Source: an uncultured Gammaproteobacteria bacterium
Lineage (GTDB): Bacteria > Patescibacteriota > Microgenomatia > Woykebacterales > RBG-16-39-9b
DNA length: 64,000 nt
Assembly: GCA_965231125.1 (NCBI GenBank)
Contig: OZ246414.1
Coordinates: forward strand, 17,739 to 81,738
Reading direction: 5' to 3'
In this document: positions 21,182-28,437 of the stretch, piece by piece
Numbering within the stretch: position 1 is the first letter of the stretch
Layout: every line of letters starts with the position of its first letter
Translations under genes and position numbers: made by a program
The notes under the pieces: generated by a model
The model's input: the letters and a program-made list of their open reading frames with translations, nothing else
The model's database searches: none
Told to the model about the DNA's origin: nothing

Positions 21182-21751
21182 TTACCAATCCCAGAGCATT
21201 CGCTTCTCCTTTCCAATTTCTACGACATTATGCCAGTTCTCCCCCTCCTGATACCAACCCAGGTTCCTAGTGAAACCACAATGGTTGCAAGTCTCAACTT
21301 TCACACCAGCTGAATGGCTTATCCACCGGATATGGTGCGATCTTTCCCTGTGAGCACAACTCAACTGCTCGAACCGCTTCACCAGTGCCCCATCGATTTC
21401 GGCCCTAGACCCCAAAGCCAAACCGGTGGTAAATGATTCGCGATGACCGGGTAACGAATCTCTTTGCCGGATTAGTTGTCTCCATATTCTGAGTTTATCT
21501 TCCCCAACCATCCTGTTAACTAGCTCGATCGGACCGATCATGGAGTGAACAGCGGTTTTCTCACCGCCTAGTGCCTTCCAAGAGCTATCCATAATCCATT
21601 TCATCTTTTCTCTGAATCGCTGAACTGCCTTCCAAGCAGCAATTTGTGGGTGTCTTGATTTCACTACTTCTGTGTAAACAAGTGTTCCGGGACTCCCTTC
21701 GAATGTCGGAACATCCCAGGTGACTAACCACCAAACCTTTCTTCGACTCAT
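21182..21751 (-). CDS. hypothetical protein with HNH-like Cys/His motif, GC-rich
   Basis: C-terminal CAHRERSHHIRWISHSAGVKVETCNHCG resembles the HNH endonuclease core. This call is tentative. Confidence 0.4.
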   Translation of the reverse strand: MSRRKVWWLVTWDVPTFEGSPGTLVYTEVVKSRHPQIAAWKAVQRFREKMKWIMDSSWKALGGEKTAVHSMIGPIELVNRMVGEDKLRIWRQLIRQRDSLPGHRESFTTGLALGSRAEIDGALVKRFEQLSCAHRERSHHIRWISHSAGVKVETCNHCGFTRNLGWYQEGENWHNVVEIGKEKRMLWDW

Positions 21752-21763
21752 TTTTCTCCTTTC

Positions 21764-22063
21764 TTATGCTCCACACCATCCGGTGTGTCGTGGACCACTG
21801 CAACCGCTGCAGGCAGGTTCCTCATCAAAGCAAAGGCGCAATTCAACCACCCGCCAAAGATACCGAACTAACCATGCGTGGCTGTCGTTAACCTCGTGGA
21901 ATGTCTCGTGTACTTCGCATTCACAGCACACCAAAGTTACTAACGCCCAGGTATTGCCCCAACCACCTCGGGTTCTGTCAAGCAGAACGTGTACTCCAGA
22001 CACTCTTTTGCATTCTGGACGATGTGACAATCTCTCCTGAACATCCGACCTAAACGAGATCAT
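21764..22063 (-). CDS. Cys-rich hypothetical protein with HExxH (HETFH) motif, GC-rich
   Basis: CCECEVHETFHEV. The plus-strand ORF overlapping it translates to low-complexity sequence. Confidence 0.35.
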   Translation of the reverse strand: MISFRSDVQERLSHRPECKRVSGVHVLLDRTRGGWGNTWALVTLVCCECEVHETFHEVNDSHAWLVRYLWRVVELRLCFDEEPACSGCSGPRHTGWCGA

Positions 22064-22080
22064 CTTTCTCCTTTCTTACC

Positions 22081-22437
22081 TCAGAAATTTTTCCTCTTGA
22101 TTAATGCCCTATTCCTACAAGACTTGCAACTGAGCTCGGCGTCGTCTTCCGAAGAAAAGGGTTTATTACCCCTAATCCAAATCAGACGGATATTGCCCGG
22201 ATTCTGGCAGGAATGCTTATGCCAAACCCACCTAAACTGCGGAAGTTTTGGATCCGCAGTCGCGTGACAATTGTCACAGTATCTTGCGTAACCAACAACA
22301 TACACACCATCCCCTACTTTGACCTGCGTTTTGCGATTTAACACAGCCGATCTCCCGCAGGATTTCCTGTGTTTAAATTTCCTCGAAGACGTGCTTCCAA
22401 CCTTCTTTTTCATGACCGAAATCTCCTTTCTTCCCAC
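22081..22437 (-). CDS. Cys/His-rich basic hypothetical protein, GC-rich
   Basis: Lys/Arg-rich N-terminus and the motifs YCDNCH...HKHSCQN...CKSCRN. Confidence 0.35.
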   Translation of the reverse strand: MGRKEISVMKKKVGSTSSRKFKHRKSCGRSAVLNRKTQVKVGDGVYVVGYARYCDNCHATADPKLPQFRWVWHKHSCQNPGNIRLIWIRGNKPFSSEDDAELSCKSCRNRALIKRKNF

Positions 22438-25097: not shown

Positions 25098-25185
25098 GTA
25101 TAAACATCATATAAAATTGGCGGTTCTATTTCCAGTTCTTCTGTTTGACTTGAAAACATCTTTGTGTTAATATTCATTCCTCAAC

Positions 25186-25255
25186 GCGGGTGGGGGGTTT
25201 AGAATCCCGCGAGGCTCATAATCTCGCTCAAGCCGGTGCGAATCCGGCACCCGCA
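25186..25255 (+). tRNA. tRNA-like gene with CAU anticodon loop (CTCATAA), non-canonical short D-arm and 4-bp T-stem
   Basis: Acceptor GCGGGTG/CACCCGC, anticodon arm GCGAGG-CTCATAA-TCTCGC, and T-arm CCGG-TGCGAAT-CCGG. A terminator follows directly. Confidence 0.45.
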
Positions 25256-25261
25256 ACCACG

Positions 25262-25297
25262 CAAACCCTACTTTAAAGGTAGGGTTTGTGCGTTTTT
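25262..25297 (+). terminator. rho-independent terminator after the tRNA-like gene
   Basis: CAAACCCTAC-tttaaag-GTAGGGTTTG followed by TGCGTTTTT. Confidence 0.55.
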
Positions 25298-25314
25298 AGA
25301 GGGTTTGGTATTCT

Positions 25315-25330
25315 TAAGAGCAGCGGACTC
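25315..25330 (+). repeat. duplicated internal tRNA(CAU) fragment TAAGAGCAGCGGACTC, copy 1
   Basis: It matches positions 21-36 of the tRNA at 25443..25517 (D-stem 3' strand, anticodon stem 5' strand, loop start). A 6-bp hairpin plus TTTT follows. Confidence 0.5.
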
Positions 25331-25417
25331 AAAGGACGCGTTGCGTCCTGTGCTTTTGGAGGCAGCGTAGCTCAGTGGTAGCATGCTTTGCATGCTGCGA
25401 CCTCGCTTTGCGAGGAC

Positions 25418-25433
25418 TAAGAGCAGCGGACTC
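25418..25433 (+). repeat. duplicated internal tRNA(CAU) fragment TAAGAGCAGCGGACTC, copy 2
   Basis: Identical 16-mer, 10 nt upstream of the intact tRNA. Confidence 0.5.
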
Positions 25434-25442
25434 TAGCAATTT

Positions 25443-25517
25443 GCCAGGGTAGCTCAGTGGTAGAGCAGCGGACTCATAAGCCGTTGGTCGGGAGTTCGAA
25501 TCTCCCCCCTGGCACCA
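25443..25517 (+). tRNA. tRNA with CAU anticodon (Met, fMet or Ile2-lysidine type), CCA encoded
   Basis: GCCAGGG-TA-GCTC-AGTGGTA-GAGC-A-GCGGA-CTCATAA-GCCGT-TGGTC-GGGAG-TTCGAAT-CTCCC-CCCTGGC-A-CCA. The cloverleaf is canonical apart from an A31/G39 mismatch. Confidence 0.85.
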
Positions 25518-25603
25518 ATGGGCAAATTGCGCAGCAAGCTGAGCTTGCTTAAAGCCTAGGTCGCAGGTTCGAATCCAGCCGCTGCCGTCACAACCACCAA
25601 ACA

Positions 25604-25632
25604 TTGACAAAAAAATTCTCCTGGCGTACGAT
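25604..25632 (+). promoter_or_regulatory. TTGACA-17-TACGAT promoter 8 nt upstream of the 25641 ATG (leaderless-type arrangement)
   Basis: Seen directly in the sequence. Confidence 0.35.
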
Positions 25633-25640
25633 TTAATCTG

Positions 25641-26460: not shown

Positions 26461-26524
26461 TATATCGCTTTTGCGATACAAAAGCAGATGCAATCTGCGA
26501 TTTAATCGCTTTTGCGATACAATC
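26461..26524. promoter_or_regulatory. two copies of the palindromic motif TATATCGCTTTTGCGATACAA overlapping a -10-like TATAAT, upstream of the ftsB-like gene
   Basis: The inverted repeat ATCGC-TTTT-GCGAT occurs twice, at 26464..26477 and 26505..26518. The same motif is found upstream of sufD at 39913..39960. Confidence 0.4.
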
Positions 26525-26557
26525 GAAAGCAATGTAACCCACGGCGATTATAAACTT

Positions 26558-26594
26558 CCGAGGGCTAAAACCCTCGGTATTGTTCTTTAAGTTT
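26558..26594 (+). terminator. plus-strand rho-independent terminator-like hairpin with no annotated plus-strand gene upstream (possible small RNA 3' end)
   Basis: CCGAGGG-ctaaaa-CCCTCGG followed by TATTGTTCTTTAAGTTT. Confidence 0.4.
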
Positions 26595-26814
26595 ACACGA
26601 GCGCAGAAAACCCTTGAAAGTCTAACTTACATTTCCCCTCAGAAGTGTGTAATCACTCTTAGCATTCATCCCCACTTTAAGAAAGTGGATTTTCTGCTAG
26701 CGATTATAATCGATCCACCTAATAGAGTTCACGAATGCTGAGGGTTCAACATAATGAGAGTCCCATAGTCTCTTGACAAGTGCCTTCTCTACTGGTAAAA
26801 TTACTTTATAGCTT

Positions 26815-27687
26815 ATGATTAAGGTTTCTGACGCGCATAAAAAGTTTATAGAACATCTAAAAAGTCAAGGTCGCTCTTCGGCGACTGTTTTGGCTTATGG
26901 GAAAGATATCGAACAGCTTAAAGATTTTCTCGCTGATCTTAAAAAGGCTCAGGTCCAAGAGATAACCACTAAGGATCTCCAAGCTTTCATGGCAAAACTC
27001 AACAAGGAAGGCTACACACCAAAAAGTATTTCCCGAAAAACAAACTCAACAAAAACCTTTTTTAGATTCTTAAAAGTCAACGAATTTGTAACTGATGACC
27101 CAGCCATTTTACTTGAACACCCACGATTCGAAATGAAACCGCCGAGAATCCTGACTAAGATGGAATATCGCGCCTTAAGAGATTCAGCTAGAGACGACAC
27201 TAGGATTTCGGCAATAATCGAGCTTTTGCTCCAAACCGGAATTAGAATTGGAGAACTGGCCAAATTAAAACTTTCTGACGCGAAATTTTCTAATAACAGT
27301 AAGGCTGGGGAACTTCACGTACCGGCTGGGGAATCTTACCCAGAAAGAACTGTTCCTGTAAATAAAGCCGCTGAGGGGGCTTTGAAGAAATACATAGAGA
27401 TCCGACCGCAAACAAAGGACGAAACCATGTTCGTGACTAAAACTGGTCGACCCCTACTTGTAAGAAACATTAGAACCGCTATCGACCGCTACTTTAAACT
27501 CGCCAGCATTAAAAACGCCAAGGTAAACGATCTTCGCCACACCTTTGTGGCCCATCACTTAATGAGCGGTACTTCTCTTGTTCTAGTTTCCAAACTTGCC
27601 GGCCACAAGAGACTAGCTACTACAGAAAAATACCTCAATCTGATTCAAGGACGCGTCGAAGAACCAATTAAACTCAACGAGCTCTAA
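26815..27687 (+). CDS. tyrosine site-specific recombinase/integrase (XerC/D-like)
   Basis: Has an N-terminal SAM-like domain. The catalytic residues LRHTF and HKRLATTEKY (R...H..R...Y) are present. Confidence 0.85.
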   Translation: MIKVSDAHKKFIEHLKSQGRSSATVLAYGKDIEQLKDFLADLKKAQVQEITTKDLQAFMAKLNKEGYTPKSISRKTNSTKTFFRFLKVNEFVTDDPAILLEHPRFEMKPPRILTKMEYRALRDSARDDTRISAIIELLLQTGIRIGELAKLKLSDAKFSNNSKAGELHVPAGESYPERTVPVNKAAEGALKKYIEIRPQTKDETMFVTKTGRPLLVRNIRTAIDRYFKLASIKNAKVNDLRHTFVAHHLMSGTSLVLVSKLAGHKRLATTEKYLNLIQGRVEEPIKLNEL

Positions 27688-28181: not shown

Positions 28182-28205
28182 TGTTAGCTCCAAGGTAGAG
28201 CACCA
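28182..28205 (+). repeat. partial internal copy of tRNA-Ile (GGTAGAGCACCACTCTTTAAAG) upstream of the gene
   Basis: It matches the D-arm 3' half and anticodon arm of 28231..28306, with two single-nt deletions. Confidence 0.5.
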
Positions 28206-28230
28206 CTCTTTAAAGCCGAGAAACTGGCTT

Positions 28231-28306
28231 GGGCCAGTAGCTCAGCGGTTAGAGCACCACTCTTATAAAGTGGGGGTCCTTGGTTCGAATCCAAGCTGGC
28301 CCACCA
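28231..28306 (+). tRNA. tRNA-Ile with UAU anticodon, CCA encoded
   Basis: GGGCCAG-TA-GCTC-AGCGGTTA-GAGC-A-CCACT-CTTATAA-AGTGG-GGGTC-CTTGG-TTCGAAT-CCAAG-CTGGCCC-A-CCA. Fully canonical cloverleaf. Confidence 0.85.
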
Positions 28307-28371
28307 TTAGGTCTTAATTGACTTGATTACTGTGGCGTTTCTCGGCTTGCGTCCCCTAAAAGCGAGGTTAA

Positions 28372-28398
28372 AAGTGGGGGTCCTTGGTTCGAATCCAT
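28372..28398 (+). repeat. exact 27-nt duplicate of the tRNA-Ile 3' portion (anticodon-stem 3' strand through T-loop), 65 nt downstream of the gene
   Basis: AAAGTGGGGGTCCTTGGTTCGAATCCA is identical to 28268..28294. After CCA it diverges (TCCGAGCTCG). Confidence 0.6.
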
Positions 28399-28437
28399 CC
28401 GAGCTCGTTTAATTTTTAGAAGAGACTAATCAATTTC

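Follow-up and report, generated by a model that had tools for sequence, protein, structure and literature searches.

In a 64-kb window, the whole stretch of DNA analysed here, from a Woykebacteria-like bacterium of the Candidate Phyla Radiation, the sole working elongator tRNA-Met gene (25443–25517) sits between the halves of an older tRNA-Met gene (25361–25381 and 25418–25433 on one side, 25550–25586 on the other). The outer halves are dead. The same nested architecture occurs at 16 related loci, where inner and outer tRNA partners vary and the junction is constant; near-identical strains differ in it, outer halves decay, and a second nest occupies a tRNA-Ile(UAU) gene 2.7 kb away. In our judgment, the arrangement probably arose by serial insertion, at one specific site, of self-complementing tRNA units into the resident tRNA-Met gene. 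Coordinates refer to the window, and all features lie on its plus strand.

Anatomy of the tRNA-Met block

The core of the original prediction, a composite tRNA(CAU) locus, is real according to ARAGORN, Rfam and three assemblies, while several details had to be corrected. The accompanying worry about a mis-assembly can be dismissed, since three assemblies of different origin agree on the locus: across the 543-nt intergenic region, the Logan assembly of SRR6155503 is identical to the window and JGI assembly 3300010391 shows one, G-U-preserving SNP. The region folds much better than shuffled sequences (z = −4.5 and −5.7). It comprises two transcription units, one for an initiator tRNA and one for the elongator tRNA-Met, and all four hairpins first noted exist (25334–25348, 25381–25395, 25401–25415 and 25533–25549).

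The initiator unit begins with a sigma-70-like promoter, TTGACT-17-TAATAT (25145–25173), and an equivalent TTGACT promoter is found upstream of this tRNA in relatives. The gene at 25185–25259 is called by ARAGORN as an initiator-type tRNA(CAU) with encoded CCA, and it does not pass the Rfam tRNA model, in agreement with the non-canonical tRNA postulated there. Its length is, however, 75 nt (ARAGORN) rather than 70 nt, and the ARAGORN drawing gives its T-stem 5 bp (GCCGG/CCGGC) instead of 4 bp. The terminator ascribed to it is present at 25260–25290 plus a T run (14-bp stem, intrinsic, 25260–25299 in total), with an equivalent hairpin of other sequence 3′ of the initiator in relatives. The D loop TTTAGAA lacks GG, and the T loop TGCGAAT has a G at position 55. 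As in initiators, the anticodon is CAU and positions 1 and 72 are unpaired (C1xA72 mismatch in the ARAGORN drawing). The three consecutive G-C pairs at the bottom of an initiator anticodon stem are missing: the stem is CGAGG/TCTCG, and 29–31:39–41 comprise one G-C, one G-U and one A-U pair. This three-G-C rule is relaxed in some bacteria. Only five sequence variants of this tRNA, differing at no more than 4 positions, exist across both clades, that of L084 with two compensatory anticodon-stem changes, and the gene is conserved under selection as a tRNA. It is the lineage’s own conserved, non-canonical initiator tRNA. Since this neighbour is nearly invariant in the genomes concerned, the turnover of tRNA-Met is local.

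The canonical tRNA-CAU expected downstream is confirmed at 25443–25517 (ARAGORN; Rfam 71.3 bits) as a functional elongator tRNA-Met(CAU), designated type A, with encoded CCA. Its leader TAGCAATTT (25434–25442) is common to relatives, reading TAGCAATTT, TAGCAGTTT, TAGTAGTTT or TAGCGATTT in L084, L087, L092 and L098. The trailer (25518–25532) pairs with it: 25521–25530 and 25436–25445 form a 10-bp helix that encloses the tRNA and had been overlooked. This helix was matched in 0 of 1000 shuffles and is usually present at related loci; in L094 and L098, a compensatory change turns A:T into G:C. Next comes a conserved 17-nt hairpin, AGCAAGC-TGA-GCTTGCT (25533–25549), placed between GC and TTAAAGCC and preceding the 3′ relic. 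Among its seven variants, 98% of cells are paired and both sides have changed in 5 of 7 pairs, which 0 of 500 shuffles matched; searches of the window and of the fetched loci found it at loci of this kind only. From tRNA to relic, the module ...TTTTGC, 17-nt hairpin, TTAAAGCC is common to many lineages. The right end of a unit reads ...GCTTGCTTA and the left end TAGCAATTT or TAAAATTGCTT. In the window, the insert in the anticodon loop measures 116 nt, 75 nt of which are tRNA.

Upstream of the relics, TTTGGTATTCT (25304–25314) may be a degenerate extended −10 box of the elongator unit, judging from an alignment by eye to TTTGGTATAAT at the same place in relatives. The outermost tRNA-Met fragment (25315–25330, about nt 20–34) contains the D-stem 3′ strand, the anticodon-stem 5′ strand and CTC. 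It is an exact copy of 25418–25433 and is either an older relic or a 16-bp duplication that arose from insertion of 25331–25417. A 16-mer had been reported to occur three times; TAAGAGCAGCGGACTC is found only twice (25315–25330 and 25418–25433), the intact tRNA reading TAGAGCAGCGGACTC, and the element truly present three times is the 13-mer GAGCAGCGGACTC. The leader of the outer tRNA, designated C, spans 25331–25360 and includes the hairpin GGACGC-GTT-GCGTCC (25334–25348). The leader of the inner tRNA in L095 is homologous to it, with the compensated stem AACGC-TTA-GCGTT followed by CTGCGCTTGTGGG.

The 5′ piece of tRNA C (25361–25381) consists of the acceptor 5′ strand GGCAGCG and D arm and is 95% identical to the corresponding part of the intact tRNA. 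Its D loop is interrupted at 25382–25417 by an insert (hairpins 25381–25395 and 25401–25415, arm 25395–25403) that has no second copy in either the window or its relatives; at the same D-loop position, L095 carries a different one. The middle piece (25418–25433) ends at nt 34 (...GGACTC), the break point, as identified by sequence repeats and junction strings. The 3′ half (25550–25586) runs from TAAAGCC... to the acceptor strand CGCTGCC. Its T arm GCAGG-TTCGAAT-CCAGC has an A-A mismatch in the stem, and GTCA follows in place of ACCA, so that CCA is absent. The proposed complementarity of the acceptor strands holds for all seven positions (25361–25367 with 25580–25586). Also the helix thought to join the halves is present, as 9 bp (25395–25403/25558–25566) rather than 8, yet its assignment as a stand-in for an anticodon stem did not survive: it is borderline by chance and absent from relatives. 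In shuffled versions of 25361–25590, perfect long-range inverted repeats of at least 7, 9 and 10 bp appear in 64%, 5.6% and 0.85% of cases, respectively. Hence, by numbers alone neither the 7-bp nor the 9-bp helix stands out, and the former convinces only because it joins recognisable tRNA halves.

Removing the inserts from the outer halves of the window in silico yields no valid tRNA, the anticodon stem being broken. Joins of the outer halves of the window and of L092 have abnormal loops or stems, and those of L098 and L090 give nothing at the ARAGORN default threshold. The outer genes are dead, given these invalid joins, a 3′ relic with a mismatched T stem and no CCA, and the decay or absence of relics in relatives.

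Junctions and variation in relatives

Relatives of the window were collected via homologous proteins and the contigs that encode them. A synteny search of genome contigs with the CNNM protein, which is widespread, found no close relative among 80 loci. Among the related loci, the partners vary: tRNA C is split by A in the window, A by B in L092 and A by E in L095; the 3′ half of B is located after E in L096; E is split by a further unit in L104, with an older relic behind; and L109 has an intact tRNA D that is similar to the dead C of the window. The outer pairs match each other even where the inner tRNA differs, as in the window (GGCAGCG/CGCTGCC) and L092 (GCCAGGG/CTCTGGC), whereas in L098 the 5′ and 3′ relics derive from different tRNAs.

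Junction strings were verified at 15 left and 10 right boundaries. The left junctions read N34|TA in 14 of 15 cases and the right junctions ...|TAAA(G/A) in all ten, intact genes having CTCATAAGCC or CTTATAAAG at the site. Thus, with one exception on the left, the old gene stops after nt 34 and restarts at nt 37 (N34|TA...TA|N37). Two tRNA species, Met and Ile, share this break position. The repeated recombination in the anticodon region that had been proposed is borne out by the constant break point, the varied partners and the differences between strains with matching CNNM.

Indeed, among strains with 99.1–100% identical CNNM, L087 is simple and L090 and L092 are nested; in a further such set, L103 has no 3′ relic, L101 one and L104 two. 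These differences in nesting depth indicate a process that is recent and still under way. Many contigs also end exactly at this site. In L084, L087, L094, L095 and L103, relics have degenerated or are gone. L084, L087, L096 and L101 have lost or scrambled the 5′ partner, and no 3′ partner is present in L084, L087 and L103; with the mismatched relics of L094/L098, the two halves are thus not conserved together. Both clades nevertheless retain a 3′ relic of A type whose T arm is intact (L092, L101 and L109). Together with the covariation of the hairpin, this sequence pattern hints at some kept function, for example in termination or insulation before the next gene. The indel between L101 and L103 is bounded by short direct repeats, ACCA. 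The tRNA segment has been inverted several times within the clade, which marks the locus as recombination-prone. Homologous recombination through shared tRNA halves can also carry nests from strain to strain, and the number of independent insertions is therefore uncertain.

The second nest surrounds a functional tRNA-Ile(UAU) (28231–28306; ARAGORN; Rfam 74.7 bits). A 5′ relic of tRNA-Ile(UAU), comprising the D arm and the anticodon-stem 5′ strand up to nt 34 (28184–28210; sequence comparison and junction strings), precedes the leader of the inner unit (28211–28230), of which 28213–28224 pair with 28337–28348 (12 bp). The trailer (28307–28370) ends ...GAGGTTA and has a homolog in L110–L119, and the 3′ relic (28371–28407) restarts at nt 37 with AAAGTGGGGGTCCTTGGTTCGAATCC... 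according to the junction strings. Since the un-nested tRNA-Ile of L110–L119 is flanked by the homologous trailer and a compensated leader-trailer helix, such a helix is a feature of the tRNA unit and no proof of a transposon end.

Origin of the nests and known systems

We infer that in each event a site-specific enzyme inserts a discrete unit of DNA. The nest would form in the DNA itself, a whole tRNA-Met unit (short leader, tRNA, trailer pairing with the leader, 17-nt hairpin) entering the anticodon loop of the resident gene such that the insert starts and finishes with TA and the old gene is broken after nt 34 and taken up again at nt 37. As each tRNA apparently has a single gene in these genomes, an insert can persist only if it supplies a functional copy of the tRNA that it disrupts. 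This new copy would take over while the split copy decays or is deleted, and would itself offer a fresh target for the next insertion. The expected result is a Russian-doll nest with the youngest gene innermost, its outer pieces being co-transcribed passengers and not a split tRNA.

The nests might instead be scars of larger elements, left when a prophage or island with its own tRNA-Met had integrated via a tyrosine integrase and was later deleted except for the tRNA and att-proximal bases. tRNA genes are classic integration sites and adjacent tRNA fragments a known by-product (PMC9897764; in archaea PMC3293823). In addition, a tyrosine recombinase gene lies 1.2 kb away, the JGI strain departs from the window at 26709, just upstream of that gene, and L099 and L100 have a second, variable integrase gene. 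Yet the halves are complementary and non-overlapping, the 5′ relic ending at nt 34 and the 3′ relic starting at nt 37, where a duplicated att segment would leave a direct repeat. The inserts measure 9–170 nt and contain no ORF or gene remnants; the same tRNA-to-relic module recurs in many lineages, which random deletion ends would not give; the recombinase is syntenic across both clades; and no viral contig scanned bears the unit. We thus consider such scars an unlikely origin. Local duplication, slippage or gene conversion among tandem tRNA-Met copies would require no site-specific step and could draw on the exact duplicate of the 16-mer, the ACCA repeats at the L101/L103 indel and the several inversions in this recombination-prone locus. 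Tandem copies would, however, match inside and out, and here tRNAs and leaders differ while the outer pairs match themselves; moreover, the break site is near-constant over 25 junctions and two tRNA species, which renders this reading improbable.

That the outer halves form a split or intron-containing tRNA or another structured RNA, the inner tRNA being freed from the “intron”, would accord with the folding energies and their concentric helices, the covariation of the hairpin and leader-trailer helices and the intact T arms in 3′ relics of several lineages; the joined halves would read stop codons, with anticodon CUA at the Met and UUA at the Ile locus. But the joined halves are invalid as tRNA, with a broken anticodon stem in place of a normal cloverleaf. 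ARAGORN with intron, relaxed and tmRNA options detected no split, intron-bearing or tmRNA gene, spurious calls appearing only at the 80% threshold. By inspection, a bulge-helix-bulge is absent at the boundaries, the 4 nt before the 3′ bulge (GCUU) being unable to pair with CUCU of the loop, and to our knowledge bacteria possess no tRNA splicing endonuclease. At E = 10, Rfam reports no intron, riboswitch or known sRNA at the tRNA-Met locus, and with respect to tmRNA only an 11-nt, 5.8-bit T-loop match. Finally, one partner is missing or scrambled in L084, L087, L096, L101 and L103, and the relics of L098 stem from different tRNAs. The split, permuted or intron-bearing tRNA raised as an option at the outset is hence very improbable. 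An assembly artefact of a strain mixture would fit the frequent contig breaks at this locus, and the tRNA of L090, whose acceptor stem does not pair, may come from a chimeric assembly. Still, three assemblies of different origin contain the arrangement of the window, and the repeats of 13–19 nt are far below read length, the junction strings being unique so that they must exist in reads; we give an artefact hardly any credence.

Serial insertion of tRNA units shares traits with several known systems. Sublocation classes of integration within tRNA genes were reportedly defined by Williams in 2002. As with prophage and island att sites, the target is a tRNA gene, the crossover falls in the anticodon loop, the incoming DNA restores the tRNA and dead pieces can stack, tRNA fragments being left beside the target (PMC9897764). 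Att elements, however, bring only the 3′ part of a tRNA, leave a duplicated att segment and put kilobases in between, whereas a nest gains a complete tRNA in about 100–170 nt, splits the old gene into non-overlapping flanking halves and receives the next insertion within the copy just gained. Archaeal disrupted tRNA genes are interrupted in the anticodon or D loop and show population heterogeneity linked to a mobile element (PMC3293823; PMC10714607; PMC4090602). They share these positions with the nest, as well as complementary sequences after the 5′ piece and before the 3′ piece. Those genes are, however, functional and cut by splicing endonuclease at a bulge-helix-bulge, while the nest belongs to a bacterium, lacks such a motif, and has a dead outer gene whose “intron” is a complete tRNA gene. 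Group I introns occur in tRNA anticodon loops of Patescibacteria and thus have phylum, kind of host gene and loop in common with the nest (PMC13011429). Nonetheless, the insert is too short at 116 nt (more than about 200 nt being expected), has no match to the Rfam Intron_gpI core at E = 10 and contains a tRNA; excising the insert would, moreover, leave the anticodon unrestored.

Xer-type systems with hairpin cassettes include integron cassettes with attC, Acinetobacter pdif modules and CTX-phi-type elements. Like these, the nests have small, gene-sized units, a conserved structure of variable sequence (the 17-nt hairpin), flanking inverted repeats, a tyrosine recombinase gene beside the array and unit inversions. 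Unlike integron cassettes, the units nest rather than stand in a row, and the recombinase scores 62.4 bits against the integron integrase model TIGR02249, whose cut-off is 265. No attC core or dif-like 28-mer was recognised at the nest, and the hairpin flanks TTTTGCA and (C/G)TTAAAG bear only partial resemblance to attC cores RYYYAAC and GTTRRRY. A dif- or attC-like core at the hairpin is unlikely because the stem covaries, as base-paired elements do, and keeps no protein-binding consensus. With MITEs of the IS630 and IS5 type, the units share a size of about 100–170 bp, terminal TA on both sides, YTAR junctions and an internal inverted repeat. They differ in that dispersed copies are missing from the 64-kb window and about 1 Mb of fetched loci, the target AT is replaced and TA not duplicated, and the inverted repeat also flanks an un-nested tRNA. 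We know of no such MITE that carries a tRNA gene.

Candidate agent and implications

An Xer-like tyrosine recombinase of 290 aa is encoded between the two nests (26815–27687; Pfam and NCBIfam). XerC, XerD and XerA match it best, though none of the three scores reaches its cut-off. Its neighbours (DUF6941, DivIC, a 154-aa gene, the tRNAs and CNNM) are constant in relatives down to about 50% protein identity, and this synteny in both clades identifies it as a resident gene rather than part of an integrated element or island. Hence, the link drawn earlier to an integrase 1.2 kb away is not supported in that form, also as the tRNA is the sole gene on the inserted DNA. By position alone, the recombinase is a candidate for the agent of insertion. 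A tRNA relic was sought at 26709, the breakpoint between L082 and the window, and nothing convincing was seen. No free or dispersed copy of the unit exists in the window or the fetched loci. The unit pattern (T loop, CCA, trailer, hairpin) has no match on viral contigs and one locus, L098, on metagenome contigs; neither the tRNA body nor the left junction matched any viral contig scanned. BLAST of 25300–25600 against phages and plasmids returned generic tRNA matches to the inner gene only, and a transposase search among the window ORFs tested revealed housekeeping genes only.

The junctions themselves set a tight constraint, as nt 35–36 (AT) are replaced by TA...TA. One-bond insertion and target duplication of TA (IS630-like), TAA or YTAR/TTAA (IS5-/piggyBac-like) were tried, the first and the TA, TAA and YTAR duplications requiring a loop CTCTAAA. 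Further candidates were a 2-bp crossover by a serine recombinase, a tyrosine-recombinase overlap, integron-type single-strand exchange, IS200/IS605 peel-and-paste and hairpin or P-nucleotide repair. All were rejected since none yields both CTC|TA and TA|AAGCC from CTCATAAGCC, and we are aware of no transposition or recombination chemistry that explains this junction.

More tentatively, miniature mobile tRNA units may home into the anticodon loop of the cognate gene, inactivate and replace it and regenerate the target, driven by a recombinase of the host, which could be the Xer-like enzyme. If so, they could constitute a class of miniature units not described before, with a leader and trailer that form a processing stem and a structured 17-nt end, though we would not yet favor this view. 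In the literature, we found no description of such tRNA-gene turnover by whole replacement units at one exact spot of the anticodon loop.

In practical terms, nests break metagenome assemblies, and planted tRNA halves may be miscalled by annotation tools. Few genes are as stable as tRNA genes, which reduced genomes carry as essential single copies. Here, an elongator tRNA-Met appears to be repeatedly replaced by a whole new copy inside the old one, while the initiator, 200 nt from it, hardly changes. Should a dedicated mechanism be at work, it would offer a selfish or beneficial DNA unit a new and safe entry into an essential gene, as the replacement is supplied, and would be a new source of diversity among tRNA sequences, for example in the escape from tRNA-targeting toxins. 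The nests would also represent a bacterial, DNA-level route to “split” tRNA genes and thus bear on the debate about the origin of disrupted tRNA genes.

The initiator tRNA and the nested elongator unit

The locus is not an assembly artefact. Among assemblies reached by exact-sequence lookup of flanking proteins, the Logan assembly of SRR6155503 matches the window at 100% identity over 5.5 kb and a JGI contig (3300010391) at 99.86% identity over 3.7 kb; in the 543-nt intergenic region, the sole difference in the JGI strain is C25445T, which keeps a G-U pair. The neighbours are housekeeping genes (TrpRS, NAD(P)H-hydrate dehydratase, CNNM/CBS transporter, DivIC, a pilin-like protein, CvpA and others), and the nearest named relatives are Candidatus Woykebacteria MAGs. 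The host organism is a CPR bacterium.

ARAGORN places two tRNA(CAU) genes here, at 25185-25259 and 25443-25517, and a tRNA-Ile(UAU) gene at 28231-28306. The Rfam tRNA model refuses the first and scores the other two at 71.3 and 74.7 bits, respectively. The original prediction described the first as non-canonical, 70 nt long, with a 4-bp T stem and its own terminator; the non-canonical character and the strong terminator hold, but the gene is 75 nt long and its T stem has 5 bp. As drawn by ARAGORN, it shows C1 opposite A72, a hallmark of bacterial initiators, a CAU anticodon and an encoded CCA, and it has its own promoter-like site. Its T loop (TGCGAAT) carries G at position 55, where U is nearly universal, its D loop (TTTAGAA) lacks GG, and its anticodon stem has lost the three G-C pairs; an A18-G55 pair possibly replaces G18-U55. 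Only five variants, at most four positions apart, occur across nine lineages with CNNM proteins down to 50% identity, and in one relative (L084) the anticodon stem carries two compensatory changes. Despite its non-canonical features, this tRNA hardly varies across two clades; the gene works and is strongly constrained, and it is the initiator of the lineage. In relative L086, a hairpin-rich insert of about 125 nt (TTTCGACTCAGCTTCG...GAAGTCGAAGGAC) lies between this tRNA and its terminator and is missing in the otherwise nearly identical L087-L092; it looks like a small palindromic insertion.

After the initiator terminator, the elongator unit opens with a degenerate extended -10 box, TTTGGTATTCT (TTTGGTATAAT in relatives). 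There follow a tRNA fragment of about nt 20-34 (25315-25330), a leader with a hairpin (25331-25360) and the acceptor and D-arm piece of an elongator tRNA-Met gene of type C, GGCAGCG-TA-GCTCAGTGGTAG (25361-25381). A 36-nt insert at the D loop with two hairpins (25382-25417) precedes the remainder of the C 5' half, which runs to nt 34 (25418-25433). The leader TAGCAATTT then joins the intact tRNA A (25443-25517), whose trailer pairs with it; next come a 17-nt hairpin (25533-25549) and the C 3' half from nt 37, TAAAGCC...GCAGG-TTCGAAT-CCAGC-CGCTGCC (25550-25586), after which GTCA stands in place of ACCA. The predicted outer halves are indeed present, with acceptor strands complementary at 7/7 positions, whereas the 16-mer claimed in triplicate occurs twice; repeat search finds the 13-mer GAGCAGCGGACTC in three copies.

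tRNA C is a dead gene: 2 of 5 anticodon-stem pairs are left, the T stem has an A-A mismatch, and with the inserts removed in silico ARAGORN returns only aberrant calls. The repeat finder identified a 9-bp helix (25395-25403 with 25558-25566) and a previously missed 10-bp helix (25436-25445 with 25521-25530) immediately around the inner tRNA. Long-range perfect inverted repeats of at least 7, 9 and 10 bp arise in 64%, 5.6% and 0.85% of shuffles of 25361-25590, so the helices convince by position and conservation, not by length alone.

Recurrence of nests among relatives

Through CNNM protein homologues with 70-80% and about 50% identity we reached 26 related contigs, 16 of them with a readable elongator tRNA-Met locus. 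The elongator unit is hypervariable among them; its architecture is constant while the tRNA partners differ. In L092, A (intact in the window and in L087) is split after nt 34 by a complete tRNA-Met B (GGCTGGG...), whose unit comprises leader TAAAAATTGCTT, trailer GCAATTTTGC, hairpin AGCAAGC-TTT-GCTTGCT and then TAAAGCC.... A is split by E in L095, with a D-loop insert like that of the window. E is followed by a hairpin and the 3' half of B in L096/L097, and by a hairpin and an A-like 3' half in L101, where at least five degenerate left junctions are stacked upstream. The 3' half of E has itself become a relic behind a new hairpin in L104, the older hairpin and relic persisting downstream. L109 holds an intact tRNA D (GGCTGCG...CGCAGCC), close to the dead C of the window, and L084, L087 and L103 keep a 5' remnant only, or none.

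The junctions follow a rule. Exact search confirmed 15 left and 10 right junction strings: the left one (^, junction) reads N34^TA(A/G) in 14 of 15, the exception being the outermost fragment of the window, and the right one ...Y^TAAA(G/A)CC in 10/10. Intact genes read CTCATAAGCC at this position; nt 35-36 (AT) are therefore replaced by an insert with TA at both ends. The 17-nt hairpin, with flanks GCA and TTAAA invariant, has seven sequence variants in which 98% of cells are paired and 5/7 pairs changed on both sides; none of 500 shuffles reaches the observed paired cells, both-side changes or covariation score, and the signal collapses in slid registers. No such module was found elsewhere in 2.1 Mb searched on both strands. 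This covariation suggests an element folded as single strand or RNA at the unit end. A significant leader-trailer helix (7-12 bp) is present in 7 of 8 nested units and missing where the 3' relic is absent; between the window and L098, it shows a compensatory A:T to G:C change. Since a compensated helix also surrounds the un-nested tRNA-Ile of L110-L119, we read it as a processing stem belonging to the tRNA unit and not as a transposon end. Some old relics still have intact T arms; these arms, like the conserved hairpin, may have been co-opted, e.g. against read-through into the next gene.

Nesting is recent, judging from closely similar strains. L087, L090 and L092 have three configurations despite CNNM genes 99.3-99.9% identical; at 100% identity over 987 nt, L101 has an intact E and L104 a split one; and in L103 (99.7%) a 66-nt hairpin-plus-relic block is entirely missing. 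Seven of eight contigs of the P0010 group (L102-L108) start within a few hundred bases of the locus, as expected of a site that varies between strains. Furthermore, many relatives have the whole segment with both promoters and both tRNAs (25098-25640 in the window, compared with L086-L095, L101 and L109) reversed with respect to the 154-aa gene and CNNM. As each clade includes both orientations, several independent inversions must have taken place.

In L090 (1718-1810), a tRNA-Met combines a type D 5' acceptor strand (GGCTGCG) with a type A 3' strand (CTCTGGC) that does not pair with it; this is either a chimeric assembly or a real recombinant dead gene, in which case the strain would have no working copy here. 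In L094 and L098, the 3' relic beside the CNNM start differs from A by a run of seven C-to-T changes (CTCCCCCCTGGCACCA to CTCTTTTTTGGTACTA), giving TGGTACTAT, an extended -10-like box just before that start. By analogy, the elongator unit could owe its conserved TTTGGTATAAT promoter to a tRNA 3' end.

The tRNA-Ile nest and the recombinase neighbourhood

The tRNA-Ile(UAU) of the window (28184-28407) has the same nested build. Its 5' relic (28184-28210) stops at nt 34 with TA next, 12 nt of the leader pair with the trailer, the intact gene (28231-28306) is followed by the trailer with a TA end, and the 3' relic (28371-28407) starts at nt 37. The leader opens with TAAAGCCG, the identical 8-mer that opens tRNA-Met 3' relics. 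In relatives this tRNA is un-nested, stable over the ten contigs L110-L119 and inverted in L099.

The two nests flank a Xer-like recombinase gene at distances of 1.2 kb and 0.5 kb. Just after GCGATTATAA, upstream of this gene, the JGI strain (L082, 3681 onward), 99.86% identical before that point, diverges completely at window position 26709; beyond it are 528-aa and 164-aa ORFs without Pfam match. The Logan contig stops close by, at 26579. Position 26709 is a strain-variable boundary beside the recombinase. The palindrome GTATCGCAAAAGCGAT occurs twice between DivIC and the recombinase (26467-26530), at a spacing of about 50 nt. At 21182-22437, the minus strand carries three ORFs in a row (189, 99 and 118 aa) that are rich in W, C, H and R and lack a Pfam/NCBIfam match; gene calls that resemble them in length (99, 149 and 189 aa) stand at the matching position of a Woykebacteria MAG (L084, L085, L099). 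That MAG also has a MazE/PIN toxin-antitoxin pair plus a further short integrase gene between FtsH and PolA (L099 15336-16007 and 19256-19903; L100), both missing from the window.

Alternative identities and a putative mechanism

Integrating elements are known to leave fragments of tRNA genes (PMC9897764). For archaea, the literature describes mobile tRNA introns (PMC10714607) and a model in which a mobile element disrupts tRNA genes (PMC3293823); in Patescibacteria, tRNA genes with group I introns are on record (PMC13011429). At this locus, neither Rfam nor ARAGORN gives a signal for a group I intron or tmRNA, and inspection of the junctions rules out a BHB intron. The split or intron-bearing tRNA offered as an alternative in the original prediction fails likewise: joins are invalid, partners are missing or, as in L098, halves come from different tRNAs, and the ARAGORN intron modes find no intron-bearing tRNA. 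An ordinary att scar is at odds with halves that do not overlap and enclose no element DNA. With an IntI score of 62 bits (cut-off 265), the locus is not an integron; with no other copy in the 64-kb window or in about 1 Mb of related loci, the unit is not a dispersed MITE, and phage, plasmid and viral collections gave nothing similar. The proposed role of the nearby integrase is unsupported, the recombinase belonging to a gene order (DUF6941, Xer-like recombinase, DivIC, 154-aa gene, tRNAs, CNNM) kept in every long-enough related contig. The predicted repeated recombination was right in spirit: discrete tRNA-bearing inserts recur, with different tRNAs, at one anticodon-loop position, the nests are polymorphic among strains, and displaced halves decay or are deleted.

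We thus propose site-specific DNA insertion into the anticodon loop, each new copy becoming the next target, which would give an inside-out age order as in L104. Insertion would be tolerated only because the insert brings the same essential tRNA. None of the chemistries tried yields both CTC^TA and TA^AAGCC from CTCATAAGCC. Existing nests probably also spread by homologous recombination through shared tRNA halves, which makes any count of primary events uncertain.

In summary, the composite locus is real, and our literature search found no description of nested complete tRNA genes. At two loci, an essential tRNA gene is replaced serially by insertion of one copy inside another, at a specific position and with polymorphism among strains; this nested serial replacement is what is new relative to known insertion into tRNA genes.
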